Source of the DNA: a virus
Virus record (IMG/VR): IMGVR_UViG_3300048818_000054
Location: 20,451-84,450 of that record
Direction: 5' to 3' (one strand)
DNA: 64,000 bases
In this document: one piece after another, positions 9,591 to 64,000 of the stretch
Layout: each line of letters begins with the position of its first letter
How positions within the stretch are numbered: the stretch's first letter is position 1
Notes under the pieces: generated by a model
The model's database searches: none
Told to the model about the DNA's origin: nothing
The model's input: the letters and a program-made list of their open reading frames with translations, nothing else
Made by a program: the position numbers and the translations under genes

Positions 9591-9592
9591 GG

Positions 9593-13329: not shown

Positions 13330-13344
13330 GCAACCTCCTGTTGC
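13330..13344 (-). promoter_or_regulatory. hairpin RBS (CsrB-like loop)
   Basis: GCAAC-AGGAG-GTTGC. Confidence 0.7.
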
Positions 13345-13590: not shown

Positions 13591-13623
13591 GTGGCAAGCT
13601 CCTGATTGTAGGGGGATAATCAG

Positions 13624-13651
13624 GACATATGCCCTTTCTGGCCTCTTGCAA
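13624..13651 (-). promoter_or_regulatory. sigma70-like promoter
   Basis: TTGCAA-16-TATGTC. Confidence 0.45.
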
Positions 13652-13738
13652 TAGGCGCTCTTCGTATTCGTGGCGAGTACCGGTGCGATCATGAGTCCAA
13701 CTCGATCTCGTCATCCTCGTCATCGGGCTCCGGTCCCA

Positions 13739-14035
13739 TCACTTGCTCGCCACAAGGTTAATGTTCACAAGGGTTTGCTTGATTATCCAGCCGCGAGGGA
13801 TGGTGATGCGATTGTTGGTTTCCATCTTCTCGCCGTTCATTCCCCATGTTCCGGCAACGACCAAGCAGTCGTCATCCTCAATCACGACCATGCCTATGGA
13901 CGTGCAGCGCTGGGGCAGGTCGGCCTCATGCTGCTCTTTCCAGCCCACATCGGCCACCGCATCGTCCCAAGTGACGATCACGACTTTGGCGCGAACGCTG
14001 ATCTTGGCGGGCTTGACGGGGGCTTTCTTGACCAT
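13739..14035 (-). CDS. conserved-looking phage hypothetical protein
   Basis: VIVTWDDA...SIGMVV...ITIPRGWI pattern. Confidence 0.65.
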   Translation of the reverse strand: MVKKAPVKPAKISVRAKVVIVTWDDAVADVGWKEQHEADLPQRCTSIGMVVIEDDDCLVVAGTWGMNGEKMETNNRITIPRGWIIKQTLVNINLVASK

Positions 14036-14039
14036 GGCG

Positions 14040-14480
14040 TCATTCCTTCGGCTTTGTCAGCTTGTGGATTAAGGCGGTAGCCGAGGCGGTCTTCTTCGGC
14101 CTGTCGTCTATAATCTTCCCCGTGGCGAAGGCGTCAATCAAAATCCCGCAGCACGCGCGTACTGAGGCCAAGTTCAATACCAGCGACCGGCTGTCAACGT
14201 CGATATCGTCGCCGCAAAACCATTGCATCAAATGGCGCATTGCTGCGTCATAATAGATGCTTGCGCGTATCGGCGTATCCAGCCAGTTATATGCTCCGTA
14301 CTTGGCGGCTCCGTCCGCCATAACGCGCCCTTCTTCAAGCAAGGCGACCGGGGGGATGTAACTGATCCCCGGTTTGAGCCGGCCGATTTTGTCTTTCGGG
14401 TTGCTTAGGTCGTGATCGGGCGGTAGCGCAGCGTCACCGGATGAATGAGCCACAGAGGCTTTTTTAACTCGCGAAACCAT
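14040..14480 (-). CDS. dATP/dGTP diphosphohydrolase-domain protein (DUF5664-like)
   Basis: NPKD...GAAKYGAYNW...YYDAAMRHL..W..G.DID.DS...LA...AC..IL. Confidence 0.8.
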   Translation of the reverse strand: MVSRVKKASVAHSSGDAALPPDHDLSNPKDKIGRLKPGISYIPPVALLEEGRVMADGAAKYGAYNWLDTPIRASIYYDAAMRHLMQWFCGDDIDVDSRSLVLNLASVRACCGILIDAFATGKIIDDRPKKTASATALIHKLTKPKE

Positions 14481-51192: not shown

Positions 51193-53268
51193 TCAATGCG
51201 TGTGATGGCCCAGCACGTCGAACGTGCAGGCGGTAAGCTCAGCAAGGCCGTCCGGGTCAAGGGACGGATCGACAAACATCAACTCGGTAGCCATCGCCAT
51301 GATACGGGCTTGTGACTCGCCGTCCATGCGCTGGAAATAGCCCATGGACTTGTTCAGTTGGACAAAATCACGTTTCCGAAGCGACTTCAATAGATCGTGG
51401 GCAAGCTCTAGGCCGGTAGCGGGCATTCCGTCGTCAGCCTTCTTGGCGTTTGACGCGGCGCTGGCATTGTTCCCGGCCGGCGTCTTGACCTTCGGTACCG
51501 GGATGGGGCCGGGCGACTTGCCGTTCTTACCGGGCGCGCCGGGCAGACGGCCCGCGCCGAGAGCCGGCGACACGGGTTGCGGGTTGATGGGTTTGATGGG
51601 CTGCTTGCCGGCCGCGCCGGCAGGACCGGCCGCTGCGCCCATGGGGCCTGCCGCTGCACCGCCAGCGCCCGCGACGGCAACGGCCGCCTTGACGCCACCC
51701 GGAATTTCCTTGATCTGCCCCGTGTCCGGATCGACGGCATGAGTGGTGCCGGGGGGAATGGGTTGCGGAGCGGGCGGCTGTATCTGGTCGGACAGCGTTT
51801 GCGCGTCCGGCGACACCTTCATCTTGATCCCGACGATCTCGTTGATGACCTCGATAATATCGGCCGGCTCGACTTGCTGCATGGTCGAAATGATCTCAAC
51901 GCCCTGAAGCTTGAGGGTCGCGTCTTCGATGACCAGAGGCTTCGATCGCAAGCAAAAGTCGTTAAACTTCATCGCCTTGAGCAACTTCATGGTGATGATC
52001 GTGTCGAAGTCATCGCGCTCCGGTTTGAACACCTGAGCCTCGGCAACCACGTACGAAGCGAAGGCGGTCGCGAAATTGTAGCTCTCGGCCTGCCCCATGA
52101 AGATGGGCGGCATACGGAAGGCGCGCAGCACGCGCTCAGTGCAGCGCTTGTCATAGTCCTCAAACATGCTGTCCTTGGTCCTGTCGCCACCGAAGCGCTC
52201 GACGGTGACGGTCGCCTTGGGCGGCCCGCCATCGGTTGAGCCGCCCGTGGGCTCGACCTCTAGGACTTGGACATGGTTGTTCTTGGCGGCCGATCCGGCA
52301 TTCATGCGCTGGATCGCCGCGCGGGTCTCGGCCTGAAGTGAGCCGCCCTGAAGGATAATCATGACCGGTGGAACGCCGCCGCGATTGAAGAATTCTAGGT
52401 TGAACTCTTCGGCCTTGCGCGAGCCGAGCACCGAGGGAAGCTGCGCTATCCAGCGCGGGATACCGTAGGGCGTATGGGAGTCCAAGATCACAATGAAGTG
52501 CATAATCTCCGTCGCGCGCATGTTCGCGGGAAGCTGTTGCCCCATGGGAGCCCAAACGGCGGTCTTCTTGTGTAGGTCACGGACCGAGCCGAAGTCCTTG
52601 AAATACATGAGCGACACGCCGTTCACAAGCTGGCAATACCGACGCTCGCGGGTCATAACATTCAGTGTCGTTTCCTTGCCTCCCCGGAAAACCTTCTGAG
52701 GAATAGACACGGCGTCATCAAGGCGCAGCATACGCATCATCTTGGCGTCAACGCGGCGAAACATGACAATTTCGTTCGACGCGTTTCGCAACACTTCAAT
52801 GAACCCGTTGCCGGTACGCTCAAGATCGCGGCGGAGCAAAGCGCGTATCTGGCGGAATGAAACGCCCGGCCACGGTTCGTCAAAGAATTCGTTCAGGGCG
52901 TCAATCTGCGTATCGTCGGCGTCATCGTCCGTCGTGTCGTCATCCTTGCTCTCGAAGGTGTAGCCGGTGCCTTCGCAATTGGTCACCATGGCCTCAATGC
53001 AAGGCGATAGGGTATTGTTTTCCTGACTCAATCGGTCAAGCGTGCGGAGCGAGAACGGAGGCTGGATAATGCCTTGGTCACGGGTCGCGCCGACGTAAAG
53101 TTGCTGGTATTCGTCTTCCGGCTCGAAGGCATTCGGCTGAACCGCGCCATCGGGATTGTTGCCACCATTCGGCCCCAAATCCTTGAGGATTTGCGTCGAG
53201 CGGTCCGCAGAGACCAAGCGAAAGATTTGAGCGGACGGTTTCGCGTCCTTCTTGATCTCGTCAACCAT
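51193..53268 (-). CDS. portal protein (PBSX-like) with long Pro/Ala/Gly-rich C-terminal extension
   Basis: PPFSL..L, RDLE.TGNGF.EV.RN, YGIPRW, FF.RGGVP, RAFRMPP..MG...YN.ATA. Confidence 0.92.
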   Translation of the reverse strand: MVDEIKKDAKPSAQIFRLVSADRSTQILKDLGPNGGNNPDGAVQPNAFEPEDEYQQLYVGATRDQGIIQPPFSLRTLDRLSQENNTLSPCIEAMVTNCEGTGYTFESKDDDTTDDDADDTQIDALNEFFDEPWPGVSFRQIRALLRRDLERTGNGFIEVLRNASNEIVMFRRVDAKMMRMLRLDDAVSIPQKVFRGGKETTLNVMTRERRYCQLVNGVSLMYFKDFGSVRDLHKKTAVWAPMGQQLPANMRATEIMHFIVILDSHTPYGIPRWIAQLPSVLGSRKAEEFNLEFFNRGGVPPVMIILQGGSLQAETRAAIQRMNAGSAAKNNHVQVLEVEPTGGSTDGGPPKATVTVERFGGDRTKDSMFEDYDKRCTERVLRAFRMPPIFMGQAESYNFATAFASYVVAEAQVFKPERDDFDTIITMKLLKAMKFNDFCLRSKPLVIEDATLKLQGVEIISTMQQVEPADIIEVINEIVGIKMKVSPDAQTLSDQIQPPAPQPIPPGTTHAVDPDTGQIKEIPGGVKAAVAVAGAGGAAAGPMGAAAGPAGAAGKQPIKPINPQPVSPALGAGRLPGAPGKNGKSPGPIPVPKVKTPAGNNASAASNAKKADDGMPATGLELAHDLLKSLRKRDFVQLNKSMGYFQRMDGESQARIMAMATELMFVDPSLDPDGLAELTACTFDVLGHHTH

Positions 53269-53308
53269 GGCTTCCTCGTCTTCGAAAACCAAATCTCAGA
53301 CCAAAGAT

Positions 53309-53322
53309 TGCAACTAGTTGCA
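53309..53322. repeat. palindrome TGCAACTAGTTGCA, copy 8
   Basis: Between DNA polymerase stop and portal start. Confidence 0.9.
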
Positions 53323-53327
53323 CAAAC

Positions 53328-55721
53328 TCAGGCGGCGAGCTTCAGTTTCTTCAGGCTTGCGAGGTTCGGGCCGGCCTCCGCGTCCACAGTAAACTGTAGC
53401 TGCGGCTTCCAACCTACCTCATGAAGCGGTAGGTTTGCCATAATCTGAGCGGCCCGTCCAGCCCATAATTCGAAGTTGTCTTCCGGGACGTACGCGATCA
53501 AGGCGTCATGGATCATGGCGACGACCTCAATCTCCCCGTTCGGATAGGCTTGGTCGATAAGTGCGATGGCCCAGACCATCATATCGGTCAAGGTGCTCTG
53601 GACAGGGGCGTTGATGCCTTGGCGCTCGGCTTTGGCTCGTATCTCGCGATCCCATGATCGGATATGGGGCAAATGCCTGATACGGCCCAGCGGGCTTCTT
53701 ACGGCCTCGTGGGCGTTGACGATCGCCTTCTGGTCGTTATGGAACTCTAGCAGGCCGGGGTAAAGCTCAAAAAAGGCGTCCCGCATCTGCGTCGCCTCGG
53801 CAAGGGACAGGCGGATACCGTAGTTCGCCCAGCTATACGCCTGAAACCCTCCTGCCGACATGCCATAAATCAGGCCAAAATTTGCCGGCTTGGCATTGCC
53901 ACGGTGCTTGTCGAAAAGATCGGCTAAGGCTTTGTCTTCGTTGTCCTTCCACGTTAAGAATTCATGCAATGGCGTCTTGCTCAGCTTGGCCCCGGTGACG
54001 GCGTGAAGGTCCAGCCCGTCAAGGTAAGATTGCAGCATGGTCGGCTCGGGCGCGAGACACGCGACGATCTTCAACTCGCCTTGGCTATAGTCGATCGACA
54101 CGATGACCTTGCCGGGGGGAGCCGGATAGCAGGCGCGTATCTTCTTGGCCCACTTCGTCTTCTTCGGCATGATCTGGATTGCGGGCTCTTTGGCGCTCAA
54201 CCGCCCCGTCGTGGTGCCGCTCTCGTCGTCTTCGTCATCGTTCAGCCCGCCGTGGAAAAGCATATAGGTGGGGTGAAGCCTACCGTCCGGACGAAGGTGC
54301 TTGAGGAAACCCTCTACAAAGGTCGATAGCGTCTTGCCGGCCGTGTCCATGGTGGTTAGGGCGGTCACCATCGCAACGGCAGCGGGCACGTCTGCGAACT
54401 GGCGCAAATGGGACTTCGCCATCGATGGCACCTTCGCGCCGTTCTTGTCCGGCTTGGGCGTGAACTCTCGCGGCTTGAGGTTGAGGCCGTCCGTGGTAAA
54501 AAAGTAATCCTTGAGGATCGACGGTAGGAGCGGGCTCTTGCCATCCTCGATCTGATCGACAATGCGATCACGGAATTTCGTCAGCATCTTTTGCGGCAAC
54601 AGTTCCATCGCCGTCTTCTGCGCCTCGGCAATCACGACTCGAAGCTCGGAAGCCAGTTCCTTCGATTTTTCAACGTCAACGCACACCCCGCGCCGCTCGA
54701 CCTTTTCAAAGGCGCGCGCGCCGGGGTGAAGGATGGTGATATAGAACCTAGTCAGAGCGGCGTCGTCTGCTAGGTTATCTCGCAGCACGTCAGCGACCTG
54801 TTGCGCGGCGTCAGTATCTCCCCCGGCGTAACCCAAAAGCTTGTCGGTCGGCACGTCCTCCATGTGGGCTTTGTCGGTCGTCTTGTTGAACACGTCGTCA
54901 TAACCGCCCATGTCCGTATAAACCTTGGCGTGCAAGTTCAGGCTGTTGGACCGGTTTTCGTCAAGCAGCGTCCCGACCAAGAGATTGTCGAATTTGAAGT
55001 TCGTACAGGCGATCCCCCACTTCTCAAAAATCCAGTTCAAATCGAATTTCAGGTTCGACCCGCGAAGCTTCACCATGGGGCTCGTAAGCAGAAATTCTAT
55101 ATGACCGAGCGAAGGCGCCTTGATACGCGGCGTCCCCGGCTGCTTCCCAAGATAGAGCAAGTGAGCGGTGCGGGGCTTGGCTGTAAAACTGATCGAAAGA
55201 ATGTCTTTGTCGGGATACCATGGGTAAAGCCCCATCGTCTCCAAATCCATCGAAACGTCTACAGGTTTGTGCGTCCCGGCATGAGTGTGAATTACATAGT
55301 CCACAACTTCTTGAAGATCGGCTGCCCACTTGTAATCTCCTAGGCTAGGTTCAAACGAGCAGGTACGGAGAAACCGGACGGCAAGGCGCACGTCCCATTC
55401 GATCAATTCTCGCGTCGAAAAAACAGTCTGCGTCAAGCCGGGGTCGAACGTCACAAGGTAAGTCCCGCCGCCCGGCGAGGCTATCGGCACCCCGCGCATT
55501 GACGTGACGGTCTTGTTCTTGGGGACCAAGCCGGCGAGGCGCAGCACGTTCAGGCAATGGTTACCGCATACAAGCACAACTTCAAGCGTTGCCGGATTTG
55601 GCAGGCTCTCGTCAAACTCTATGAAGTGGTGAGGGGGAACGTCAGGCCGGTAGTTCTTTAGAATAGGCCCGAAAACTTTCTGCACCGTGGGCGATGCAGC
55701 CGAAGTCCAAATCTTTAGCAA
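53328..55721 (-). CDS. DNA polymerase family A with 3'-5' exonuclease and degenerate UDG-like N-terminal domain
   Basis: MDLET, YAGGD, TGRLSAKEPAIQ, IDYSQGELK, AKPANFGLIYG, IHDAL. Confidence 0.95.
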   Translation of the reverse strand: MLKIWTSAASPTVQKVFGPILKNYRPDVPPHHFIEFDESLPNPATLEVVLVCGNHCLNVLRLAGLVPKNKTVTSMRGVPIASPGGGTYLVTFDPGLTQTVFSTRELIEWDVRLAVRFLRTCSFEPSLGDYKWAADLQEVVDYVIHTHAGTHKPVDVSMDLETMGLYPWYPDKDILSISFTAKPRTAHLLYLGKQPGTPRIKAPSLGHIEFLLTSPMVKLRGSNLKFDLNWIFEKWGIACTNFKFDNLLVGTLLDENRSNSLNLHAKVYTDMGGYDDVFNKTTDKAHMEDVPTDKLLGYAGGDTDAAQQVADVLRDNLADDAALTRFYITILHPGARAFEKVERRGVCVDVEKSKELASELRVVIAEAQKTAMELLPQKMLTKFRDRIVDQIEDGKSPLLPSILKDYFFTTDGLNLKPREFTPKPDKNGAKVPSMAKSHLRQFADVPAAVAMVTALTTMDTAGKTLSTFVEGFLKHLRPDGRLHPTYMLFHGGLNDDEDDESGTTTGRLSAKEPAIQIMPKKTKWAKKIRACYPAPPGKVIVSIDYSQGELKIVACLAPEPTMLQSYLDGLDLHAVTGAKLSKTPLHEFLTWKDNEDKALADLFDKHRGNAKPANFGLIYGMSAGGFQAYSWANYGIRLSLAEATQMRDAFFELYPGLLEFHNDQKAIVNAHEAVRSPLGRIRHLPHIRSWDREIRAKAERQGINAPVQSTLTDMMVWAIALIDQAYPNGEIEVVAMIHDALIAYVPEDNFELWAGRAAQIMANLPLHEVGWKPQLQFTVDAEAGPNLASLKKLKLAA

Positions 55722-55741
55722 GGCGTGCTCCTAGGCGAGCG

Positions 55742-56143
55742 TCAAGCTGCCAGAGCCCACACGTCATCGCGGCCCTTATAGAAGCTGCGTGAGACGCCTT
55801 TGTCAAGCGCGGCGAGCGCTACTTCGAGACTTTCTGGACGATGCTTTTCCAACCAACCGTTGAACTGCTCCATCTTCGCCAGATTAAGCGCATGGATCGA
55901 AATTTCTACTCCGTTCACCGCGACAAGAAACCCAAGGTTGCCGAGCACGCTCACGATAACCATCGTGCAGCCTTTCGCGACGTGGGAACTCTTGACCTTC
56001 ATGGTGAGGCGGACAGGAAGGTCGCCAAGCACGACCTCTCGCGAAACCTCGCCCGTTACCATGCCGGTGTTGCGATTGTGAAACACCTTCATGGCGAGCG
56101 CATCCGCGATGGCGTATATCGAATGCTGGTTCACAACTTCCAT
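55742..56143 (-). CDS. hypothetical protein
   Basis: ORF with plausible RBS. Confidence 0.55.
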   Translation of the reverse strand: MEVVNQHSIYAIADALAMKVFHNRNTGMVTGEVSREVVLGDLPVRLTMKVKSSHVAKGCTMVIVSVLGNLGFLVAVNGVEISIHALNLAKMEQFNGWLEKHRPESLEVALAALDKGVSRSFYKGRDDVWALAA

Positions 56144-56337
56144 TTGATTGATCCCTTGTAGTTGGCGGCTGACCATTTACCGAGCGTCGCGCCAAGATAG
56201 GTCACGACAAAATCAGCCGTAACGCCCACTTGTGCGGTGCAGAGCAGCTTGACCGGTTCGTCCGTTAGGGCAGGGAAGGGCGACGGCGTTTCCAGCCTAT
56301 CGCCAACTTTGAGGCTATTGAAAAACGAAACGTCCAA
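56131..56337 (-). CDS. hypothetical protein
   Basis: 68-aa ORF with GGAG RBS. Confidence 0.55.
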   Translation of the reverse strand: MDVSFFNSLKVGDRLETPSPFPALTDEPVKLLCTAQVGVTADFVVTYLGATLGKWSAANYKGSIKWKL

Positions 56338-56346
56338 AGGGGGCTC

Positions 56347-57246
56347 CTACTGCTTGAGGGCGATCTTGGCAAAGTCGGGGAACGGCGTGTCAATCGCGAT
56401 GCCGAGGCCCATAAGGATTGCGCCGAGCGTCTTGCGCGCGAGCGGTATATCGTTGGCGATGCCCAAATGAAGGCTGGCGTAATCTGGCTTGAAGGTATCG
56501 AACCCGACGCCGATAATTGCGTTCTTGTGGGCGAGCAGCTTCGGACCCTCGATCCGGATTGAAAGCTGAGCGCCGTTATACTTGACCGCGACGTTCACGC
56601 CCTCGCCTCTCGCAACCACGAAATATCGCGAGCCGGCCGAAGTGCCATGGACAGGCTGGTAAAGGTGCTCCGCGCTCTTGAGATTAATCGTTGGTCCGTT
56701 CATTATGTCGCCTTCCTTAGTCGCATATTTCATCGGGGCGGTGCTGGTCGCTTGGAACGTCTTGCTGGTCCCGAGCGGCATCGGCTTTTTGAGGAACGAT
56801 AAGTCCTGAGCGTCGAATACTTCGGCTGCATCGTCGGCCGTCAAATCGATGGGCTGAGACTTCAATTTCGGCAAGGTGCTGAGAATGCTTCCGGGGGCAG
56901 CCGGCTTAGCGAACAGTTCGTGAGCCTTTTCCATCTGCGCCTTGGCAACCGTATGGGCCTTGATCGCATAGGAGATTGACTCTTTCACGTAAGCGGCTAG
57001 AGACGTGTTCTTGACTATGGGAAGCTTATTCTTGGTATCCGCTTGCAGATGGGGCGATATTTCCGCTGCATGGACCAAGAGGCCGTTCGTGCGGTCGCAA
57101 AACCACAAGCCGCTCGGCTTCCAAAAGACAGCCAGACCGACCGCCCACATTTGCTTCAAATCTTTGTCGCTACCCGTGAGCCACTGGATATCGTTCCAAG
57201 CGGACTTTAGTTTCGTGGGAGCGTCTTTCTTAATGAACAAAGCCAC
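56347..57246 (-). CDS. hypothetical protein (own promoter, hairpin RBS)
   Basis: GTG start 7 nt after AGGAG. Confidence 0.75.
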   Translation of the reverse strand: MALFIKKDAPTKLKSAWNDIQWLTGSDKDLKQMWAVGLAVFWKPSGLWFCDRTNGLLVHAAEISPHLQADTKNKLPIVKNTSLAAYVKESISYAIKAHTVAKAQMEKAHELFAKPAAPGSILSTLPKLKSQPIDLTADDAAEVFDAQDLSFLKKPMPLGTSKTFQATSTAPMKYATKEGDIMNGPTINLKSAEHLYQPVHGTSAGSRYFVVARGEGVNVAVKYNGAQLSIRIEGPKLLAHKNAIIGVGFDTFKPDYASLHLGIANDIPLARKTLGAILMGLGIAIDTPFPDFAKIALKQ

Positions 57247-57247
57247 C

Positions 57248-57264
57248 AAAAACCTCCTGTTTCT
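57248..57264 (-). promoter_or_regulatory. hairpin RBS (CsrB-like loop)
   Basis: AGAAAC-AGGAG-GTTTTT (one G-U pair). Confidence 0.65.
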
Positions 57265-57278
57265 ATTGGCTTATTTAC

Positions 57279-57307
57279 AATATAGGCGTGATCCGAAGCG
57301 GTATCAA
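57279..57307 (-). promoter_or_regulatory. sigma70-like promoter
   Basis: TTGATA-17-TATATT. Confidence 0.65.
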
Positions 57308-57337
57308 GTAGCATTTGGGGGAATGGTGAACAGATCG

Positions 57338-58168
57338 TTAAGCCCCCCAAATATTGCTCTTGGACGTGACCGGGCAATAGCTGTCGATCACCCCATGTGA
57401 CGTGTCATAGCTGGTCTTGGACCCTGCGGAGTAGTTGTTGCCGGTGTATGGGGTAACTTCATTCTTCCCGGACTTGGCGGTCGTCTTGTAGCCCTTGTGC
57501 TTCAACTTCTTGCAACCAAACTCCTTGACCAGAAAATCGACTTGCGACGTGCTCTCTACCGCCGTCTTGCAGTAGTTCGTGCGGACATACTCGATAGCGT
57601 CGCTCTCTCCGTAGCGGGTGACCAGCGCGGCAAGGAACATACCGGTCCGCCCGTGTCCGCCCATGCAACCGCAATGGACTTTTCGGCCGGCGTCGATCTG
57701 CTTTTTGGTCCAGTCCACCAGCTTGTTGAATTCTTCCGGCTTGTCCGGGATGCCCATGTCGGGAATGCGGAACAGGACTTCATCGCCCTTCTTCCAAGGC
57801 CAATTGCGTTGCGTGAACCGCATGTCATAGGCGAAGCCGATATACACGTCGGCGTCTTGGACGATCGGCTCGGAGCACGACCCGCCATAGATCACCTTGT
57901 CGGTCCCCGGCAACGGCATAGCCGGATGCTTATGGTAGCAGCGGGAAAAGATGCCGGCGTAATTGTGAGACTGATACTTTGTGCCGGTGCCGCTGACGCC
58001 GTGATGCTTGGCAGACGCCAGTTCGAATTTCGAATAACGCTGTTCCGCGCCAGAGCGCCACGGTAGCACGCCTTGCGCGCTGTAAGCCGGGTCGTGGCTG
58101 TCTTGCGGACCTAGGCCACCGTCACGGTGCTTTTCAAATTCGTCCCATGTATCCAGATACTTTGCCAT
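57338..58168 (-). CDS. Cys-based (PTP/dual-specificity-like) phosphatase with N-terminal extension
   Basis: VHCGCMGGHGRTG (CX5R); TAATG-coupled start. Confidence 0.85.
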   Translation of the reverse strand: MAKYLDTWDEFEKHRDGGLGPQDSHDPAYSAQGVLPWRSGAEQRYSKFELASAKHHGVSGTGTKYQSHNYAGIFSRCYHKHPAMPLPGTDKVIYGGSCSEPIVQDADVYIGFAYDMRFTQRNWPWKKGDEVLFRIPDMGIPDKPEEFNKLVDWTKKQIDAGRKVHCGCMGGHGRTGMFLAALVTRYGESDAIEYVRTNYCKTAVESTSQVDFLVKEFGCKKLKHKGYKTTAKSGKNEVTPYTGNNYSAGSKTSYDTSHGVIDSYCPVTSKSNIWGA

Positions 58169-59256
58169 TATGCCGCTTCCTTTCGAATGATCTTCTTGAC
58201 GTAAACCGGACCGGCCTTGCCGGGCATAACCAGCAAGTGTTCCTTGATGAAATTCTTCTTGTCGAGCGCGACCTGCGCGGCGAAAGCTTCGGCCTTGGCC
58301 TTGGCGGCGGCGATGGCGGCCTTTGTTTCCGGCGTCATGCCATAGATTAAGGTCTGTTTCTTTATTTCGTTCGGATATTTTTGGACTGAGCCTTTCGCTT
58401 CCACCGTGTTCCAATCGACATAGGGGCCGATCGCGCCGGGGAAGTAATCGCGAACCCAAGCGGCCATCCCGGTCATTTCCGGGTTGACGTAGTGAGCCAT
58501 TTCCGGGTCGTGAAGGATGGTCTCAATCATCTGTCCGGAGCGCTGCAAATCGAGCAGCCGAACAATGTAACTTCCGTTATGGCCGAACAGCTTACCAGGC
58601 TTGTTAAAGATGGGAGCGCAATTGTGCGAGAGGGTCCAAATGGTATCGAGCATGATCTCTGCCGTAAACTCGCCGTTCACAAAACGGCCCATGCAATCGG
58701 CAATGTTGCCCCACTTAGGACCGCCGTAAGCGCCGCCCCAGATTGAATGATAGTAAGACCAGCGAAGCGCGTCGCATAGCGTCCCGATCGAACAATCCAG
58801 CGTGTTCTTGAGCAGGCGGTTGATAATGTCTTCCTCGCCGCCAGAGGCGGTAAGGAAGTTGGCGACCGGCGCTCCGAATTTTTCGGTTAGCTTCGGTCCA
58901 TCGGTCTGCTTCGAATGACTGTGGCGGGCCTCGCGAACGCATATGGAAAGCAAGTAATAAAACGAGCGGCGGGCCTTCTCGCCCATCATCGCATGGTAGC
59001 GCTGAACGAAGTCCAATTCGGCGGCCGGCAGCGGCTCCAACGGATGGCGCTTGGCCGAGATTAACGCCATGCCATGGTTCATGCCGTAAAACCAAAGGGC
59101 TTCACGTTCAGGGCTGGCAAGAGGCGTCTTGTCTTGAGAATGAAATTGCTTGTAGGCGGGGATCACCGAGGAAACGGGAACTGCCGACATATCGGCCGGT
59201 CGCGTCAAAGCGCGTGAATTGTGATAGGCCAAAGTGTTTTGTGGGTCTGTGAGCAC
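58168..59256 (-). CDS. uncharacterised helical protein in the PPDK/phosphatase cluster
   Basis: 362 aa; own promoter; motifs CVREARH, YGGPKW..IA, HNCAPIFNK. Confidence 0.75.
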   Translation of the reverse strand: MLTDPQNTLAYHNSRALTRPADMSAVPVSSVIPAYKQFHSQDKTPLASPEREALWFYGMNHGMALISAKRHPLEPLPAAELDFVQRYHAMMGEKARRSFYYLLSICVREARHSHSKQTDGPKLTEKFGAPVANFLTASGGEEDIINRLLKNTLDCSIGTLCDALRWSYYHSIWGGAYGGPKWGNIADCMGRFVNGEFTAEIMLDTIWTLSHNCAPIFNKPGKLFGHNGSYIVRLLDLQRSGQMIETILHDPEMAHYVNPEMTGMAAWVRDYFPGAIGPYVDWNTVEAKGSVQKYPNEIKKQTLIYGMTPETKAAIAAAKAKAEAFAAQVALDKKNFIKEHLLVMPGKAGPVYVKKIIRKEAA

Positions 59257-59263
59257 GCCGGAA

Positions 59264-59276
59264 AAACCTCCTGTTT
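59264..59276 (-). promoter_or_regulatory. hairpin RBS (CsrB-like loop)
   Basis: AAAC-AGGAG-GTTT. Confidence 0.6.
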
Positions 59277-59289
59277 ATCAGGCATTTAG

Positions 59290-59318
59290 AACATAGCATC
59301 TAGGAGGGTCGCGTTCAA
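59290..59318 (-). promoter_or_regulatory. sigma70-like promoter
   Basis: TTGAAC-17-TATGTT. Confidence 0.6.
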
Positions 59319-59337
59319 GCGGTAGTTTCTGCGATGG

Positions 59338-59835
59338 TTAAGAAAGTCCTAAAAACCATCCGAAGCGCTTGCGCCACGCCGCCCAGAAAAACCAACGCTG
59401 GATTTCTTCAACGGGGAAGGCGGCTACGTAATCGATCTGCTCTTCTGTCTCGCACGACCGGTCATCGTAATGCCAGCGGACGTAGCCGACCGGATTTCCA
59501 ATCCCGGCGACCTTGGCTAGGAGCGCAAGGAACAGACCGGTGCGGCCGATGCCGCCCATGCAGCCGACGTAAACTTTCTTGCCGTCCAGCATGGCTCGGA
59601 GCGCTTTCTTGAGGACCGAGACGACGGCTGACGTGTCCTGCGGAACCTGAAAGTCCTTGATTGGCAACCACGCATGGACGCCTTCGAACGGGACGCGCTC
59701 GGAGCGAACGCAAACGTTGAAGGTTCCGCCGACCGGGCGCGCGTCAAACGGGCCACCGTCGATATCGAAACGATACCAACCGCCGTCCCATTGAAAATAG
59801 AGAGGCATTGAATTTGTCAGTCTCTTATGAAGCAC
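59338..59835 (-). CDS. Cys-based (PTP/dual-specificity-like) phosphatase
   Basis: VYVGCMGGIGRTG; LPIKDFQVP; ET.EQ. Confidence 0.85.
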   Translation of the reverse strand: MLHKRLTNSMPLYFQWDGGWYRFDIDGGPFDARPVGGTFNVCVRSERVPFEGVHAWLPIKDFQVPQDTSAVVSVLKKALRAMLDGKKVYVGCMGGIGRTGLFLALLAKVAGIGNPVGYVRWHYDDRSCETEEQIDYVAAFPVEEIQRWFFWAAWRKRFGWFLGLS

Positions 59836-59836
59836 G

Positions 59837-59853
59837 CGAAACCTCCTGTTTCG
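59837..59853 (-). promoter_or_regulatory. hairpin RBS (CsrB-like loop)
   Basis: CGAAAC-AGGAG-GTTTCG. Confidence 0.7.
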
Positions 59854-59857
59854 TCAA

Positions 59858-60070
59858 TCACTTATAGCACATTTTGACAGCATCGCAAATGATATCGCCG
59901 TCAATGGTTAAGAGCCAATCCCTGAACCGCCAGTTCCCATATTCGCTTGTGACTGGCGAGGCGCGCCGTCCCATGGCGGCGAGGGTACGGGCGAACATGC
60001 CGCGCATCCCATCTTCCTTGGCGTGAGCGATGGCGTTATCCGACACGCGGTACACCCTGAACCTTGTCAT
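59858..60070 (-). CDS. hypothetical protein
   Basis: 70-aa ORF overlapping the CsrA-like gene end. Confidence 0.5.
   Translation of the reverse strand: MTRFRVYRVSDNAIAHAKEDGMRGMFARTLAAMGRRASPVTSEYGNWRFRDWLLTIDGDIICDAVKMCYK
59861..59888 (-). promoter_or_regulatory. sigma70-like promoter
   Basis: TTGCGA-16-TATAAG with TG extended -10. Confidence 0.5.
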
Positions 60071-60341
60071 AGCCGTTTTCCTCGCGCCATCTGTCGCCCT
60101 TTAAGATACGCATGGATTTGGGCGCGTCAATAACGACTCTCGCAATGCCGTGTTGCGGGCGGTCCCCGGACGAAATGAACACGTCAGGCATAATCTCTGT
60201 CGCCTCTTCCTCTCCGATCTTGAACATCTGGTCGCCGGCCGCGAGGGTGAAGGTGAAGCGTCCGGAGCGATACGCCACGAAAACCTGCTTGTCGGCAACA
60301 TAGAAATCGTCGCCTTCTCTGAGGCTGAGGGTGAGGGGCAT
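60036..60341 (-). CDS. CsrA/RsmA-like RNA-binding protein (with insertion)
   Basis: LTLSLREGDDFYVAD ~ CsrA LILTRRVGETLMIGD; ARVVIDAPKSMRILKGD ~ VRIGVNAPKEVSVHREE. Confidence 0.55.
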   Translation of the reverse strand: MPLTLSLREGDDFYVADKQVFVAYRSGRFTFTLAAGDQMFKIGEEEATEIMPDVFISSGDRPQHGIARVVIDAPKSMRILKGDRWREENGYDKVQGVPRVG

Positions 60342-60345
60342 GAGG

Positions 60346-62325
60346 CTAGGCTCCTAAGACAGAGAACACGGCATATTCAGCGGGCATAGCCTTGGGCGCT
60401 GCCGTATGGCCGTCGTGGTCGATAATCAGACCCGCCAGAGCCTTACCACGGATTTTGATCGCGTTCTGTAAAACCTTGACGAACGGGTCGGTCTTGACAG
60501 TCAGGTTGCCGAAAGTCTCGCGTAGCGTGTCGTCAGCTTCGTTCAGGAAAGCCTTGGGCGGGCGAACGTCAAGGGTGACGTGCATACGCATCGGCAGAGC
60601 CGCGAGGCCGTCCAACACCGCCGTCATGACCTCTTCCGAACCCCACCACTGAGAGGCCATGATCCGATGGGGCTTGGCCGCTCCCATGTCGCACGGGACA
60701 GGCGGGCAAGTGCCGAGCATTTCGAAAGACCAATCGATCACGTTCTGGACCGCCTTGTCATCCGAGGCGTCGATCACCGGAACCTCTTGATTGATCCAAA
60801 CCCGGCCGGTCGAACCGTCGATCGTAACGGTTTTCCACTTGCCGGCGTTGTCCAGCATATGCGGCCCGACGCCAACCACGCAAGTCTTGTCCATTGCGCG
60901 GGCGACCACGGCGGCGTGACTGGTAGCACCGCCCATGGCGGTTAGAATGCCCTTGGCCTTCGCCATCCCGGCGATATCGTTAGGGCTGGTTTCGTGCGTC
61001 ACCAGAATGCAATCGAACTTGGCGGCGACCGCATCGGCCGAGCTAAACACCGGCTGCGCGGTCACGACGCCGGGGCAACCGGGGATGCCGGTGAAATCTG
61101 GCTTGACCTTGTAATCGGGATCAATCTGCGGGCGGCGCAGCGTCTTGAACTGTTCGCTCGAAAGTTTCTTGAAAGCGTCAAGGCGGGTCCACTCGCCAGC
61201 GCCCACCTTGTCTACCGCGATGCGGAAGGCCGCGCGCGCCGAGCGCTTTCCAGAGCGGCTTTGCAGGATATAAAGCTTGCCCTGCTGAACCGTAAACTCA
61301 ATGTCCACCATGTCATTATAGATGGTTTCCAGCTTCGAGCAGAGCGCCAAAAGCTGGGCGTGAACGTCGGGCCAAGTAAAGTCGAGGCCGTTCGTGTTAT
61401 AATTCCACTTGCCGATCATGCCTTCAACGGGATGCGGGGTCCGGATGCCGGCCACCACGTCTTCACCTTGGGCGTTCTCCAAAAACTCTCCGAACATGCC
61501 GGGCTCGCCAGTTGACGGGTTGCGAGTGAAAAGGACGCCGGTTCCGCTCGACTTGCCCATGTTGCCGAACACCATCGCCTGTATGGTAACGGCGGTGCCC
61601 ATGTCATCGGGGATGCTATTCAGCTTGCGATACTCAATGGCGCGGGGGCTCTCCCAGCTATCGAACACGGCCAAGATGGCGGCAGCTAACTGCGCCCCCA
61701 AAGTATTGGGGAATTCCTTCTGCGTCGCGGCCTGAAACTTCTGTGTCATCAAAAAGCTGACCGCCTTCAAAGCGCCAACGGTCAGGTCGGTATCGAGCAC
61801 CGCTTTATCGAGCACCTTCATTGCGGCCAACTCGCCGTCAAACACGGCCATCGGAACACCGAACGCCGTTGCGCCGAGCATCGTTATCAAGCGACGGTAG
61901 CTGTCGAACGCGGCGCGCTCGCCAATCTTATCCCCCCAGCTATCGACGTTGCTTGTCGTGAGGCCGACGTTCAAAATCGTGTCCATCATGCCGGGCATAG
62001 AAACTGGCGCGCCAGAGCGGACCGAAACGAGAGGCATGAAGCCGAACTTCTTTTCGAGGGTCGCCATGTGCTCCATGGTCTTTGCGACCAAACCATCAAT
62101 GAAAGACACGTCAGCCGTCGTCACGCCGGCCTTCTTCATTACGCGGAACTTATTGCAAACGTCCGTCGTGATGGTGAAACCAGGAGGAACCGGCATTCCA
62201 TCATTGACCATCCTCACAAGGCCGGCACCCTTGCCGCCAAGGACGCGCTTCGTTTCCGAAGCGTCCGACGATTGCCACTGGCAACCGGTGTCCGAAAAAT
62301 CATACATGGGAAGGTAGTCGGTCAT
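60346..62325 (-). CDS. PPDK-like dikinase: ATP-grasp + phospho-His swivel domains, lacking the PEP/pyruvate barrel
   Basis: LGGKGAGL, PVPPGFTITT, LVSVRSGAPVSMPGMMDTILNVG, NAQGEDVVAG, GGATSHAAVVAR; only 659 aa. Confidence 0.9.
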   Translation of the reverse strand: MTDYLPMYDFSDTGCQWQSSDASETKRVLGGKGAGLVRMVNDGMPVPPGFTITTDVCNKFRVMKKAGVTTADVSFIDGLVAKTMEHMATLEKKFGFMPLVSVRSGAPVSMPGMMDTILNVGLTTSNVDSWGDKIGERAAFDSYRRLITMLGATAFGVPMAVFDGELAAMKVLDKAVLDTDLTVGALKAVSFLMTQKFQAATQKEFPNTLGAQLAAAILAVFDSWESPRAIEYRKLNSIPDDMGTAVTIQAMVFGNMGKSSGTGVLFTRNPSTGEPGMFGEFLENAQGEDVVAGIRTPHPVEGMIGKWNYNTNGLDFTWPDVHAQLLALCSKLETIYNDMVDIEFTVQQGKLYILQSRSGKRSARAAFRIAVDKVGAGEWTRLDAFKKLSSEQFKTLRRPQIDPDYKVKPDFTGIPGCPGVVTAQPVFSSADAVAAKFDCILVTHETSPNDIAGMAKAKGILTAMGGATSHAAVVARAMDKTCVVGVGPHMLDNAGKWKTVTIDGSTGRVWINQEVPVIDASDDKAVQNVIDWSFEMLGTCPPVPCDMGAAKPHRIMASQWWGSEEVMTAVLDGLAALPMRMHVTLDVRPPKAFLNEADDTLRETFGNLTVKTDPFVKVLQNAIKIRGKALAGLIIDHDGHTAAPKAMPAEYAVFSVLGA

Positions 62326-62327
62326 CG

Positions 62328-62344
62328 TTGAACTTCCTGTTCAA
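62328..62344 (-). promoter_or_regulatory. hairpin RBS (CsrB-like loop)
   Basis: TTGAAC-AGGAA-GTTCAA. Confidence 0.7.
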
Positions 62345-62360
62345 TCACGGTGTTGATTAG

Positions 62361-62388
62361 AACATAGCACGCCGTACGGCTCTTGCAA
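62361..62388 (-). promoter_or_regulatory. sigma70-like promoter for the PPDK-like gene
   Basis: TTGCAA-16-TATGTT with TG extended -10. Confidence 0.55.
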
Positions 62389-62418
62389 GTACGACGTGCC
62401 ATGATGGTTAAAAATCAG

Positions 62419-62652
62419 TTAAGCGACGACTGGACGTTCGGCCTGAAAATGGTCGATCGTCTTTCCGTCATCGTTCATCACCCAAGCGTCACCGGACACC
62501 GGATACGTAGAGCAGCCTTTGCCTTCGCGCCATACGGTGCAAATCAACGGCGTATCCTGTTCCTTGTCGGTATGGAAGTCCACGCCGGTTATGTCGTGTC
62601 CTCCGATGATCGAAAACAACTGTGGTTTCGGATCGTAAATCTTGATGAACAT
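62419..62652 (-). CDS. hypothetical protein
   Basis: Start MFIKIYD with AGGA RBS. Confidence 0.5.
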   Translation of the reverse strand: MFIKIYDPKPQLFSIIGGHDITGVDFHTDKEQDTPLICTVWREGKGCSTYPVSGDAWVMNDDGKTIDHFQAERPVVA

Positions 62653-62716
62653 ATCTGTCTTCCTATCTGTCTCTTCGACGGTGCGCCGTCCCGATCCGTT
62701 CAACGAACGAATTTCG

Positions 62717-63229
62717 TCAATGCACTGAACGCGTGTAGAGCCCTTGAAGCTGGGCGCGCGTGATAAGATAGCCGGCTTCCTTGCGCCACAACCTTTCGTT
62801 AACTGACCACACCGGCCTGAGACCGTCAACGTCAGGGTCATCGTTCTTGGCGTCTTCCATGAGCAGCAAAGCGACAAGCACGGCTTGGCACGTCTTATCG
62901 TCCAAGAGGCCCTCGTCCACTAGGAGCAGGGGGAACATGGCGCACACGTACAGGGCGTGCCTCGGCTCTCCCGCTGCTAGGTCGCGCATCATGGAAACTG
63001 CCGTCCCCTCCACTCTGGCCGCGAGACGTGCGACGTTGAACATGTCCAGACTTGCTAACGGTTTGACCGATGCGACAGACAAATGGTGCAATACGTCCGC
63101 CCTGATCGTAAAGCCTGTCTTCTGGCATTCCTCGATAGCCAATATCAGCATGTGCGCGGGCAGACACATTTCCAATATCTTCGAGTCCCGCACCTGAAAG
63201 GCCCGAGGTTCCAACACCTGAACGCTCAT
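62717..63229 (-). CDS. hypothetical protein
   Basis: Start MSVQVLE with GGAG RBS. Confidence 0.6.
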   Translation of the reverse strand: MSVQVLEPRAFQVRDSKILEMCLPAHMLILAIEECQKTGFTIRADVLHHLSVASVKPLASLDMFNVARLAARVEGTAVSMMRDLAAGEPRHALYVCAMFPLLLVDEGLLDDKTCQAVLVALLLMEDAKNDDPDVDGLRPVWSVNERLWRKEAGYLITRAQLQGLYTRSVH

Positions 63230-63398
63230 TTTCCGTCTCCAATTGCCCGCCGTTCTGATTGGCGAGTGTTTCAAAAGTGGGGTCTTCGAACGCTGGCGTA
63301 ACGACGTAGCCGTTGTCCGTATAGGGGACTTTGCGCTTGTCTAGCGCAGCACAAAACACGGCTTGCCCCGTGTCATTGAAAAATCGAAAATCACTCAT
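62895..63398 (-). CDS. possible small protein coupled to TerL (only the first ~55 codons look genuine)
   Basis: ATG overlaps the TerL stop; the remainder overlaps the next gene out of frame. Confidence 0.3.
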   Translation of the reverse strand: MSDFRFFNDTGQAVFCAALDKRKVPYTDNGYVVTPAFEDPTFETLANQNGGQLETENERSGVGTSGLSGAGLEDIGNVSARAHADIGYRGMPEDRLYDQGGRIAPFVCRIGQTVSKSGHVQRRTSRGQSGGDGSFHDARPSSGRAEARPVRVRHVPPAPSGRGPLGR

Positions 63399-64000
63399 CT
63401 TCCGACCGCATGGTGACTAAGCCCTTTTGCGTGCGGAGGCGGTCGATATACGGCATAGCCATCAACTCCTCCTTCTCGCGCGCAGCGATATCGTTCTTGC
63501 CGCGCGGCTCAGTCAAGAACGTCGGAATTCGGTTGCCCGGTATCCCGTGCTTGGTCCAGCTATCGCGCATCCTCATGAGGCCGAGCACAACGCCGGCCAT
63601 GGCGTCTGCAACGTCCTTCGATCCTTTCGGAGGATGGTCGATCTTCTGCTTCTTTACGTCAAGTTCCAAGCTCACCATTTCCTTCTGGGCCTTGGCATGG
63701 ACCGGCGCGAGTATGCGACCATCATAAAACGCCTGCTTAGTGAGGTCATATCCGAACGTGTCGCTGTCCACCGTAGCCTTGCCGCAAATGAAACCTTCGC
63801 GCTGCAATATCTGCCGGCTATCGTCAGACTGGTACTGATCGAACGTCACCCATTTGATGTTGATTTTCAACGTGTCACGGACGAAATAAATCAAGCTACG
63901 AATGTCCGCGAACACGATCTCCCCGCCCTTTGGCGGCGGCACTTCAAGGACAAAATCAAAACGGATGATCGGCAAGTCTTCCGCGTAATCCCCACGCTTC
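63391..64000 (-). CDS. terL: terminase large subunit, C-terminal nuclease domain (5' part outside the window)
   Basis: VTFDQYQS, KIDHPPKGSKDVADAMAGVV. Confidence 0.9.
   Translation of the reverse strand, partial: KRGDYAEDLPIIRFDFVLEVPPPKGGEIVFADIRSLIYFVRDTLKINIKWVTFDQYQSDDSRQILQREGFICGKATVDSDTFGYDLTKQAFYDGRILAPVHAKAQKEMVSLELDVKKQKIDHPPKGSKDVADAMAGVVLGLMRMRDSWTKHGIPGNRIPTFLTEPRGKNDIAAREKEELMAMPYIDRLRTQKGLVTMRSEDE

Follow-up and report, generated by a model that had tools for sequence, protein, structure and literature searches.

A fixed block of genes adjoins the DNA polymerase gene of a soil phage and is common to ~100 related phage sequences. The window, by which we mean the whole 64,000-nt stretch of DNA that was analysed, contains all seven ORFs of the original prediction at 56347..62325, all on the minus strand (Table 1). 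The prediction drew the module too small, as the conserved unit continues through orf68, orf144 and PolA to 53328. Writing K for the dikinase, c for the CsrA-like protein, s for orf70, P for the phosphatases, X for ORF362, Y for ORF300 and u/v for orf68/orf144, the order K-c-s-P-X-P-Y-u-v-PolA-portal was found in 84 loci, IMG/VR contigs and phage records among them, and the same K-to-PolA-portal order recurs in nine of 10 additional loci from GTDB genomes.

Of the 94 related loci compared, 93 have identical gene order, wherever the flank is long enough and down to ~30% identity. Lack of conserved co-occurrence across phages would have spoken against the prediction, and the set is found together at every related locus with sufficient flank. 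Since the loci are drawn from one lineage with fixed synteny, the co-occurrence reflects shared descent and retention rather than independent association. Within this lineage, a large group of 80-120-kb siphophages, the block belongs to the vertically inherited core and is not a mobile accessory cassette. PolA stands apart from the other replication genes and is always linked to the dikinase-phosphatase block. The combination had been thought not to be a described system, and we found no paper describing it as one; in the literature its parts go by other names, namely auxiliary metabolic PPDK, thymidylate synthase and, for relatives of ORF300, transporter.

Table 1. Features of the conserved block, in coordinates of the window
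Feature	Position	Strand	Remarks
DNA polymerase I (PolA; family A, with 3'-5' exonuclease)	53328..55721	-	invariant downstream neighbour, then portal gene
orf144, conserved block protein	55742..56176	-	74 loci
orf68, conserved small block protein	56131..56337	-	63 loci
ORF300	56347..57249	-	variable N-terminal half, conserved alpha/beta C-terminal domain ~180-300
RBS leader hairpin, ORF300	57240..57272	-	loop AGGAG; -12.5 kcal/mol, z -4.05, 1/200 shuffles as stable
sigma70-like promoter, ORF300	57275..57307	-	TTGATA, 17 nt, TATATT, then GTAA; 10/12 matches
phosphatase 2, 276 aa	57338..58168	-	PTP domain ~105-225, GCMGGHGRTG, acid loop IPDMGIP, extra N-/C-terminal parts
ORF362, all-alpha, predicted acceptor-side subunit	58168..59256	-	AF2 and predicted complex
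RBS leader hairpin, ORF362	59255..59285	-	loop CAGGA; -10.2 kcal/mol, z -1.1
sigma70-like promoter, ORF362	59286..59318	-	TTGAAC, 17 nt, TATGTT, then CTAA
phosphatase 1, minimal Cys-based PTP/DSP	59338..59835	-	GCMGGIGRTG; acid loop IKDFQVP
RBS leader hairpin, phosphatase 1	59837..59853	-	loop AGGAG; -5.7 kcal/mol, individually not distinct from shuffles
promoter-like site, phosphatase 1	59861..59888	-	TTGCGA, 16 nt, TATAAG; inside orf70 end
orf70, conserved small protein	59858..60070	-	same-position homologues in 71 loci
CsrA-like protein (orf101), 101 aa	60036..60341	-	~35-aa insertion; present in 81 loci
truncated PPDK-type dikinase, 659 aa, proposed donor subunit	60346..62325	-	ATP-grasp, swivel domain, variable tail
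RBS leader hairpin, dikinase gene	62328..62344	-	loop AGGAA; -7.6 kcal/mol, z -1.1
sigma70-like promoter, dikinase gene	62357..62388	-	TTGCAA, 16 nt, TATGTT, then CTAA

Phosphatases, small proteins and expression signals

The two CX5R phosphatases are both intact, as had been claimed: each has a GCMGG(I/H)GRTG signature with an upstream I-x-D-x-x-x-P acid loop, and the catalytic Cys, Arg and Asp are retained. Phosphatase 1 scores 29.0 bits on Pfam Tc-R-P and 28.0 bits on PTP-SAK (cut-off 27), among solved chains it comes closest to minimal archaeal PTPs (E 1.5e-4), and its signature is conserved in 77 of 81 homologues. Phosphatase 2 matches solved minimal PTPs at E 9e-7, with GCIGGHGRTG in 73 of 86 homologues. 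The thymidylate synthase label that PHROG gives the phosphatase 2 family is an annotation error. The proposed coupling of ORF362 to phosphatase 2 is seen in the TAATG overlap of their stop and start. ORF300, with homologues in 78 loci, has invariant L190, Y209, R232, S259 and H261; its C-terminal domain is modelled by AF2 at pLDDT >90 and its fold matches are weak (Z<=5.5). Family searches with orf70 returned no match.

By its sequence, the protein of 101 aa is truly related to CsrA. Searched against the PDB, the family profile (A4) picks up CsrA/Rsm chains and nothing else (E 0.002-0.6), and the homologue in Vibrio phage VH2_2019 reaches 28.2 bits where the Pfam CsrA cut-off is 27, so that the earlier assignment stands. 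Like the CsrA/RsmE repressors (PDB 1y00, 2jpp), the protein has the N-terminal strand and the C-terminal A-P-[KR]-x-[IV]-x-[IV]-x-R motif, and its candidate targets here present GGA in the loops of hairpins that cover the Shine-Dalgarno sequence. Unlike them, it carries the insertion, and the copy in the window has Lys where the family has a near-invariant Arg and no Pfam match of its own.

Four units had been credited with their own sigma70-like promoters and hairpin RBSs. The pattern TTGnnn-N16-18-TAT[AG]TT[CG]TAA occurs at exactly three sites in the 99,945-bp genome, upstream of PPDK, ORF362 and ORF300; the site before phosphatase 1 is a variant of this shared motif and is therefore weaker evidence than the other three. 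A generic promoter scan found the ORF300 site alone. Promoter-like sites also lie at the corresponding position before the dikinase gene in DLP5, RHph_TM16 and VH2_2019. All four leaders follow one design, in which a small hairpin exposes AGGA(G/A) in its loop of 5 nt, and the ORF300 hairpin alone stands out individually from shuffles. The strong, early expression first read from these signals is a prediction.

The dikinase and its predicted partner

Residues 20-533 of the dikinase match solved PPDKs at their residues ~12-528 (PDB search, E 2e-114). Its Pfam matches are PPDK_N and PEP-utilizers only, with none to PEP-utilizers_C: the ATP-grasp domain and the swivel domain, which holds the catalytic His470 in TSHAAVVAR, are kept, as originally described, while the PEP/pyruvate barrel is absent and a variable tail of ~130 aa stands instead. 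Across 55 homologues His470 is invariant and the C-terminal tail unconserved. Could this be an ordinary auxiliary metabolic gene, a pyruvate phosphate dikinase boosting host glycolysis or gluconeogenesis as in the phage literature? The sequence similarity to PPDK is strong and papers use the label, but with the barrel missing the known pyruvate/PEP site is unavailable to the enzyme. Moreover, it scores 524 bits on TIGR01828, far under the PPDK equivalog cut-off of 843, and its best 120 relatives all share the identical truncation. Its domain content contradicts a glycolytic identity, and we regard this explanation as scarcely credible.

Three groups of proteins invite comparison. With PPDK (EC 2.7.9.1; PDB 5jvn, 1kbl, 1dik, 1vbg) the phage enzyme shares the ATP-grasp nucleotide and swivel phosphohistidine domains over ~510 aligned residues, including the TSH motif; it differs in exchanging the TIM barrel for the tail, and its acceptor side is predicted to reside in another polypeptide, unrelated in fold. 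The same two domains, again with no barrel, make up the short PPDK-like proteins (NCBIfam NF004531 / PRK05878, 534 positions), and the phage dikinase scores 415 bits on that model, below its cut-off of 456. The extra tail and the invariable ORF362/phosphatase/PolA context set the phage proteins apart. In rifampin phosphotransferase (RPH), the prodigiosin ligases PigC and RedH, and glucan-water dikinase, ATP-grasp and swivel His likewise phosphorylate or activate a non-pyruvate substrate in a dedicated domain, and the dikinase weakly matches the NCBIfam models of RPH, PigC and RedH. Their substrate domains are fused in-chain and have other folds, whereas here a separate gene product is proposed.

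Where, then, is the acceptor side of the phage enzyme? ORF362 is confidently modelled as an all-alpha fold (AF2 pLDDT 95.2) that has no match in the PDB by Foldseek or VIA (Z<5); an aGPT-Pplase-like glycosylase fold was ruled out by fold comparison. Its family comprises 834 cluster representatives at E<=1e-3, the invariant residues include R108, E109, R111, D204, H211, N212, K219, D236, Q238 and R358, and H112 is kept in at least 90% of homologues. A complex of ORF362 with dikinase residues 380-658 was predicted at ipSAE 0.82, against 0.00 for the best control. Repeated runs (0.82, 0.83, 0.72) had at least 89% of contacts in common and partner pLDDT of at least 82. In a benchmark 58 of 80 solved complexes, but two of 110 mismatched pairs, attained the ipSAE mark, counts that are rough because our own alignments were used. 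The predicted interface involves dikinase residues 464-479 (with His470), 590-608 and 646-658, and ORF362 residues 57-61, 196-212 and 238-243, which contain the conserved N60, H61, D204, N212, Q238 and R239. The prediction thus places ORF362 against both the loop of the catalytic His and the variable tail, an arrangement suggestive of a dikinase split over two proteins. No other part of the dikinase is as free of conservation as this tail, which is what one would expect of a co-evolving partner-binding piece. This modelled complex supports the suggestion, made in a companion to the original prediction, that ORF362 takes the place of the missing barrel.

Proposed function and competing explanations

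We tentatively propose, at somewhat less than an even chance, that the block is a core enzyme module centred on a split dikinase, with ORF362 as the in-trans acceptor side, an anionic acceptor and tuning by the CsrA-like protein. The PPDK-derived protein would move phosphate from ATP to swivel His470, and ORF362 would substitute in trans for the lost barrel, held by the variable tail and turning conserved basic and acidic residues of its own towards the His loop. ORF362 may bind the true acceptor, most likely a deoxynucleotide or DNA, and the module might thereby feed or modify the product of the adjacent polymerase. The two Cys phosphatases could act at a later step of the pathway, stripping off the activating phosphate, or could degrade a competing nucleotide by hydrolysis; a writer/eraser pair acting on one substrate, as first envisaged, is possible, and these roles fit equally. 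The CsrA-like protein would bind the leader AGGA loops and so tune translation of three or four short transcription units.

Nucleotide or DNA is our best guess for the target because of the polymerase linkage and the restriction-resistant DNA of two relatives, DLP5, cut by four of 36 enzymes (PMC5834331), and DLP3, cut by none of 15 (PMC7326821). That resistance could instead come from their glycosyltransferase and sugar-nucleotide genes. A tblastn comparison of the RcZahn sugar and glycosyltransferase genes with this phage gave no match. The genome also encodes dCTP deaminase/dUTPase-like and ThyX proteins, and a search of this phage for a hydroxymethylase or Tet/JBP oxygenase found none. If the target is DNA, the module would resemble thymidine hypermodification (5-hmdU DNA kinase with aGPT-Pplase/AADT; PMC8989533), in which ATP-dependent phosphorylation activates a group for later chemistry and which is encoded by phages with restriction-resistant DNA. 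There, however, the kinase is a P-loop enzyme and the transferase has a helix-hairpin-helix glycosylase-like fold, neither of which matches here, and no 5-hmdU source was found in this phage.

An RNA target would also fit the CsrA-like partner and the PTP-SAK-type phosphatases. The dikinase-ORF362 pair and the phosphatases would then remodel RNA ends, whether the 5'-phosphorylation state or the repair of cleaved tRNA or mRNA, with the CsrA-like protein as specificity factor. The block invariably includes an RNA binder of the CsrA type, PTP-SAK, which is among the best Pfam matches of the phosphatases, takes its name from the predicted 'Swiss Army Knife' proteins of RNA repair, whose phosphatase domain it is, and the Cys phosphatases baculovirus BVP and PIR1 work on RNA 5' ends. 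We nevertheless consider this quite unlikely: the block holds no RNA ligase or other repair enzyme, a DNA polymerase is what invariably adjoins it, the phosphatases have generic minimal PTPs as their closest solved relatives, and the CsrA-like protein is more simply a regulator of the GGA-loop leaders. Host takeover, as originally predicted, would mean that early in infection the dikinase phosphorylates a protein of the host or a signal in its defence and that the phosphatases remove phospho-marks of either host or phage. The block's own sigma70-like promoters, which the host polymerase reads, its kinase and phosphatase content and the further counter-defence candidates reported in the same phage speak for it, but counter-defence genes usually vary among relatives, while this block is a fixed core beside PolA in ~100 divergent loci. 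A PADLOC search gave no match, no action on proteins is known for the PPDK/PEPS family except via an EI-type PTS relay, for which no HPr-like partner was seen, and the conserved ORF362 residues resemble a site for a small molecule or phosphate. Neither host takeover nor signalling that targets a defence protein of the host gained specific support, and this reading appears unlikely. To our knowledge, starch/glycogen is the one well-known natural case in which DSP-type phosphatases accompany a PPDK-type His-swivel dikinase, and by analogy with plant glucan-water dikinase, SEX4 and laforin the module might phosphorylate and dephosphorylate a polysaccharide of the host, for instance glycogen or a capsule/LPS precursor. 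Several relatives do have sugar-nucleotide and glycosyltransferase genes. This role seems improbable, as no carbohydrate-binding module was detected in any block member, and the block is intact in this phage despite the lack of matches to the RcZahn sugar genes and is linked to PolA rather than to sugar genes.

Lineage and conservation of the block

What kind of phage carries this block? The record of 99,945 bp, of which the window covers bases 20451-84450, is rated complete, has a GC content of 0.58 and carries nearly all of its genes on the minus strand, and the phage turns up in metagenomes from permafrost and peat. Its gene content and order place it in a lineage with Rhodobacter phage RcZahn, Rhizobium phages RHph_TM16 and Y1_11, Stenotrophomonas phages DLP5, DLP3 and Summit, and the VHS1/SIO-2-like Vibrio siphophages. 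Megablast of the region found nothing in the phage collection.

The original prediction described a phospho-signalling and host-takeover module built on a writer dikinase and eraser phosphatases. All the elements it listed are found in the sequence, and as an observation it is both confirmed and extended, whereas its interpretation is partly supported: the module is real and conserved, and its published labels are wrong. Using iterated profiles, one per window protein, we searched 80 IMG/VR loci with their flanks and 10 loci from GTDB genomes. The order dikinase, CsrA-like protein, orf70, phosphatase 1, ORF362, phosphatase 2, ORF300, orf68, orf144, PolA, portal is kept in essentially every adequately flanked locus, down to about 30% ORF362 identity. 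The dikinase was found wherever a locus extended beyond 5 kb on the upstream side of ORF362, and the split block was the only form found among the GTDB loci. The sole exception to the order is L095, a rearranged and apparently incomplete copy on a bacterial chromosome. In this 4.65-Mb Thalassobaculaceae MAG chromosome the block ends after ORF362 and a PolA gene is encoded on the other strand; this could be a prophage copy that has been rearranged or is decaying.

Because the order holds at adequately flanked loci, the co-occurrence across phages on which the original prediction hung is conserved in related loci. This conservation shows one lineage with frozen synteny, that is, long retention under selection and not repeated independent association. 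The conserved unit exceeds the module as originally delimited and takes in PolA, which sits between terminase and portal, apart from the helicase, primase and recombination genes. At many related loci (L013, L014, L031, L034, L039, L047, L053, L058, L064 and L076) the PolA frame runs to 1040-1620 aa against the usual ~795 aa, which suggests the insertion of inteins, homing endonucleases or additional domains. The block belongs to the core of a phage lineage that is widespread, with hosts ranging from Vibrio, Stenotrophomonas, Rhizobium and Rhodobacter to MAGs of Acidobacteriaceae and Helicobacteraceae, and phage therapy or aquaculture use has been proposed for several of its members.

Coordinates of the features discussed in the text
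Feature	Sequence	Position
Phosphatase 2	window	57338-58168
Phosphatase 2 homologue	L003 (related locus)	13607-14395
ThyX	genome	91860-92729
ACAGGAGGT ribosome-site core	window	12070-12078
ACAGGAGGT ribosome-site core	window	13333-13341
ACAGGAGGT ribosome-site core	genome	96431-96439
Overlap of CsrA-like ORF and orf70 (35 nt)	window	60036-60070
Range of exact metatranscriptome contigs	window	53000-63500
78-nt skip within the dikinase gene	window	61476-61555
881-aa PPDK	L007 ('Enterococcus/Listeria phage' record)	7989-10634
323-aa ParB neighbour (outside the window)	genome	87262-88233
DruA-domain protein	L011 (Nitratireductor record)	1853-2686

The dikinase and its predicted partner ORF362

Solved PPDKs align with the dikinase (659 aa) over their first ~528 residues (E 2e-114), where the alignments end. 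The ATP-grasp nucleotide-binding domain (Pfam PPDK_N, PF01326, E 2.1e-46) and the swivel phosphohistidine domain (Pfam PEP-utilizers, PF00391, E 4.1e-23) are both present, and all 55 homologues compared keep the catalytic His470 (TSHAAVVAR). Past residue ~516 the homologue alignment is unconserved, and a Pfam search at E<=0.1 found no PEP-utilizers_C match that would mark the PEP/pyruvate TIM barrel. An atlas feature match between the tail (520-659) and a PEP-binding fragment was too low (0.75) and was left unused. The protein scores 524.3 bits against the PPDK equivalog cut-off of 843.45 (NCBIfam TIGR01828), and its best 120 relatives are all phage-type proteins of 459-752 aa. Since it lacks the barrel and falls short of the TIGR01828 score, two defining features, the dikinase is not a member of the PPDK equivalog, and the missing barrel contradicts its published reading as an auxiliary metabolic PPDK. 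In dozens of papers on phage genomes and of database records, the dikinase appears as a glycolytic auxiliary metabolic gene and its neighbours as a thymidylate synthase, a signalling tyrosine phosphatase or a transporter. Judged by domain content, these labels are wrong. A full-length PPDK of 881 aa in unverified 'Enterococcus/Listeria phage' records, as at L007, is an ordinary PPDK outside the dikinase family, and these contigs look like bacterial sequence.

The dikinase is predicted to work like other His-swivel dikinases, and its nearest group is PRK05878, made up of short PPDK-like proteins (415 bits versus a cut-off of 456). The same chassis serves other acceptors in rifampin phosphotransferase, PigC/RedH and glucan-water dikinase, all of which have their acceptor domain fused, whereas in the block it is predicted to be a separate subunit, ORF362.

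Why look to ORF362 for this role? The family is large (834 cluster representatives at E<=1e-3) and has a set of invariant or near-invariant polar residues: R108, E109, R111, H112, D204, H211, N212, K219, D236, Q238, R239 and R358. Its AlphaFold2 model is all-alpha and confident (pLDDT 95.2). This model matched nothing in the PDB by Foldseek at E<=0.001, stayed at Z<5 against 48,161 chains by VIA and found nothing in the ESM atlas by shape or by features; on these empty searches an aGPT-Pplase or other known fold was rejected. From AFDB came only a protein named DUF5636, with 46% identity, and four that are uncharacterised, and the one paper that mentions DUF5636 merely lists it beside the T6SS protein VgrG. 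Searches of Pfam, NCBIfam and PADLOC gave no family match, the only one being PHROG phrog_20946 (unknown function), and the longer homologues, considered as informative fusions, carried no Pfam domains.

We predicted the complex of dikinase residues 380-658 with ORF362 in three runs, alongside three controls. The prediction reached an ipSAE of 0.82 (runs 0.82, 0.83 and 0.72) versus 0.00 for the best control, with at least 89% of contacts in common among runs and a partner pLDDT of at least 82. Of 80 solved complexes, 58 attained this mark, as did 2 of 110 mismatched pairs; both counts are only approximate because our own alignments were used. In the predicted interface, the His470 loop (464-479) packs against ORF362 residues 57-61, 196-212 and 238-243, stretches that bear conserved residues, while the variable dikinase tail (590-608, 646-658) lies against ORF362 helices. 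The model supports, but does not show, a replacement of the lost barrel in trans by ORF362 with the dikinase tail as anchor. The enzyme would then be a split dikinase, with ORF362 as a separate acceptor side held by the C-terminal tail. If true, this would be a new His-swivel enzyme architecture with its acceptor domain in trans, and would pair a protein fold without a solved relative with a defined question: which acceptor takes the phosphate?

Phosphatases, CsrA-like protein and remaining members

Both phosphatases have the phosphate-binding loop C-x5-R-[ST] (GCMGGIGRTG in phosphatase 1 and GCMGGHGRTG in phosphatase 2), retained as C-x5-R-T-G in nearly all homologues (n=81 and n=86, respectively), and a general-acid Asp ~30 residues upstream of the Cys (IKDFQVP and IPDMGIP, respectively). 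Among the 86 phosphatase-2 homologues, only 3 gave no I-x-D-M-x-x-P acid loop, and a simple pattern finds an acid loop in about half of the phosphatase-1 homologues. Phosphatase 1 exceeds the Pfam cut-off of 27 bits (Tc-R-P 29.0, PTP-SAK 28.0); phosphatase 2 falls below it at 23.1 bits, yet matched solved minimal PTPs at E 9e-7. Minimal archaeal PTPs are the nearest solved relatives of both. The stop codon of ORF362 and the start codon of phosphatase 2 overlap as TAATG. PHROGs (phrog_17568) names the phosphatase-2 family 'thymidylate synthase', and the records of DLP5 and DLP3 have it as 'thymidylate synthase thyX'. We rejected this assignment for the window protein and its L003 homologue, which are without ThyX similarity; the phage encodes a real ThyX elsewhere.

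The window copy of the CsrA-like protein has no Pfam match. Homologues score 28.2 bits against Pfam CsrA in VH2_2019, a related Vibrio phage (cut-off 27), and 20.7 bits in RcZahn gp7, and a family profile of 39 homologues (A4), searched against the PDB, matched CsrA/Rsm chains and no others (best E 0.002). In the alignment, the first strand of CsrA and an A-P-K-E-V-x-V-x-R-type C-terminal motif flank an insertion of ~35 aa. Family position R81 is near-invariant and is Lys in the window copy (ILKGDRW); judged by eye, it may correspond to the RNA-contacting Arg44 in the C-terminal strand of E. coli CsrA. The CsrA-like ORF and orf70 overlap in different frames, and both appear real because both are conserved in relatives.

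Four leaders in the block each fold as a short hairpin over the Shine-Dalgarno sequence with AGGA(G/A) in its 5-nt loop, making them candidate CsrA-type sites; compared with shuffles, only the ORF300 hairpin is distinct on its own. CsrA classically targets a GGA that a hairpin over the ribosome-binding site displays in its loop, so the simplest reading is that the CsrA-like protein would regulate translation of its own block. The ACAGGAGGT ribosome-site core also precedes a few other phage genes, which could be further targets. The promoter pattern TTGnnn, 16-18 nt, TAT[AG]TT[CG]TAA has three occurrences genome-wide, one each before PPDK, ORF362 and ORF300; phosphatase 1 has a looser version of it, and distant relatives have promoter-like sites at the same three positions. 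Three peat metatranscriptome assemblies contain exact contigs of 150-520 nt scattered over the block, PolA and the terminase side. They hint at expression in nature, weakly so since DNA carry-over is possible. One contig in each of two runs has a 78-nt skip within the dikinase gene, with short sides (23 nt).

In ORF300 the N-terminal half varies and the alpha/beta C-terminal domain (pLDDT >90) is conserved. The ORF300 profile matched nothing in the PDB, and its fold matches, to the T4 MotA C-terminal domain, T3SS-chaperone/YbjN folds and, for the N-terminal part, T7 Gp1.2, are so weak (all Z<=5.5) that we drew no function from them. Vibrio phage papers name its relatives 'transporter'. No family matches were found for the conserved orf70, orf68 and orf144, and PADLOC matched no block protein.

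The target of phosphorylation

What does the module act on? A possible, if doubtful, answer is an undescribed nucleotide or DNA modification route. The His-swivel dikinase and its separate acceptor subunit would activate a base or deoxynucleotide by phosphorylation, the two Cys phosphatases would finish the pathway or police it, and the product would be used by the dedicated PolA alongside. We lean towards this target because the PolA linkage is invariant, the conserved residues of ORF362 are basic and acidic, and DLP5 and DLP3 DNA resists restriction enzymes. Only 4 of 36 enzymes cut DLP5 DNA (PMC5834331) and 0 of 15 cut DLP3 DNA (PMC7326821), the modification being unidentified in both. The route, if true, would explain this heavy modification and would give phage DNA modification a third kinase chemistry in addition to P-loop DNA kinases and dNMP kinases. 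However, caution is called for because relatives have sugar genes, the genome has no Tet/JBP oxygenase, and ORF362 is not of aGPT-Pplase-type fold. DLP3, DLP5, RcZahn, TM16 and VH2_2019 all have sugar-nucleotide and glycosyltransferase genes, which could account for the resistance of DLP3 and DLP5; the RcZahn genes found no match in the window phage.

An RNA target also fits, given the CsrA-like member of the block and the PTP-SAK-type phosphatase matches. There is less support for a protein target, as host takeover would imply, and for a glycan target, suggested by analogy with glucan-water dikinase and laforin/SEX4; no CBM family, the carbohydrate-binding module of such systems, is among the Pfam matches of the block proteins. 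Culturable members with restriction-resistant DNA make the phosphate-acceptor question directly testable.

How does the block compare with known modification systems? Thymidine hypermodification combines 5-HMUDK with aGPT-Pplase/AADT, aGPT-Pplase being a helix-hairpin-helix glycosylase-like transferase (PMC8989533). No block protein has a Pfam match to aGPT-Pplase or to a P-loop kinase, and neither the ORF362 nor the ORF300 model matches a glycosylase-like fold. As to a source of 5-hmdU, Tet_JBP is unmatched across the whole genome at E<=10, and the sole thymidylate-synthase relative found is of ThyX type; the genome also encodes a dCTP deaminase/dUTPase-like protein. In the literature we found neither a dikinase-based phage modification or counter-defence nor the combination of a separate acceptor subunit, a Cys phosphatase pair and a CsrA-type regulator. 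The module is possibly the core of a new pathway.

ParB-dependent T-dioxygenase systems place a Tet/JBP oxygenase beside ParB (PMC13229309). We rejected this assignment for the phage, whose genome has no such oxygenase; its 323-aa ParB neighbour has no family match. At L011, a DruA-domain (PF14236) protein lies beside a ParB-like gene, upstream of the terminase.
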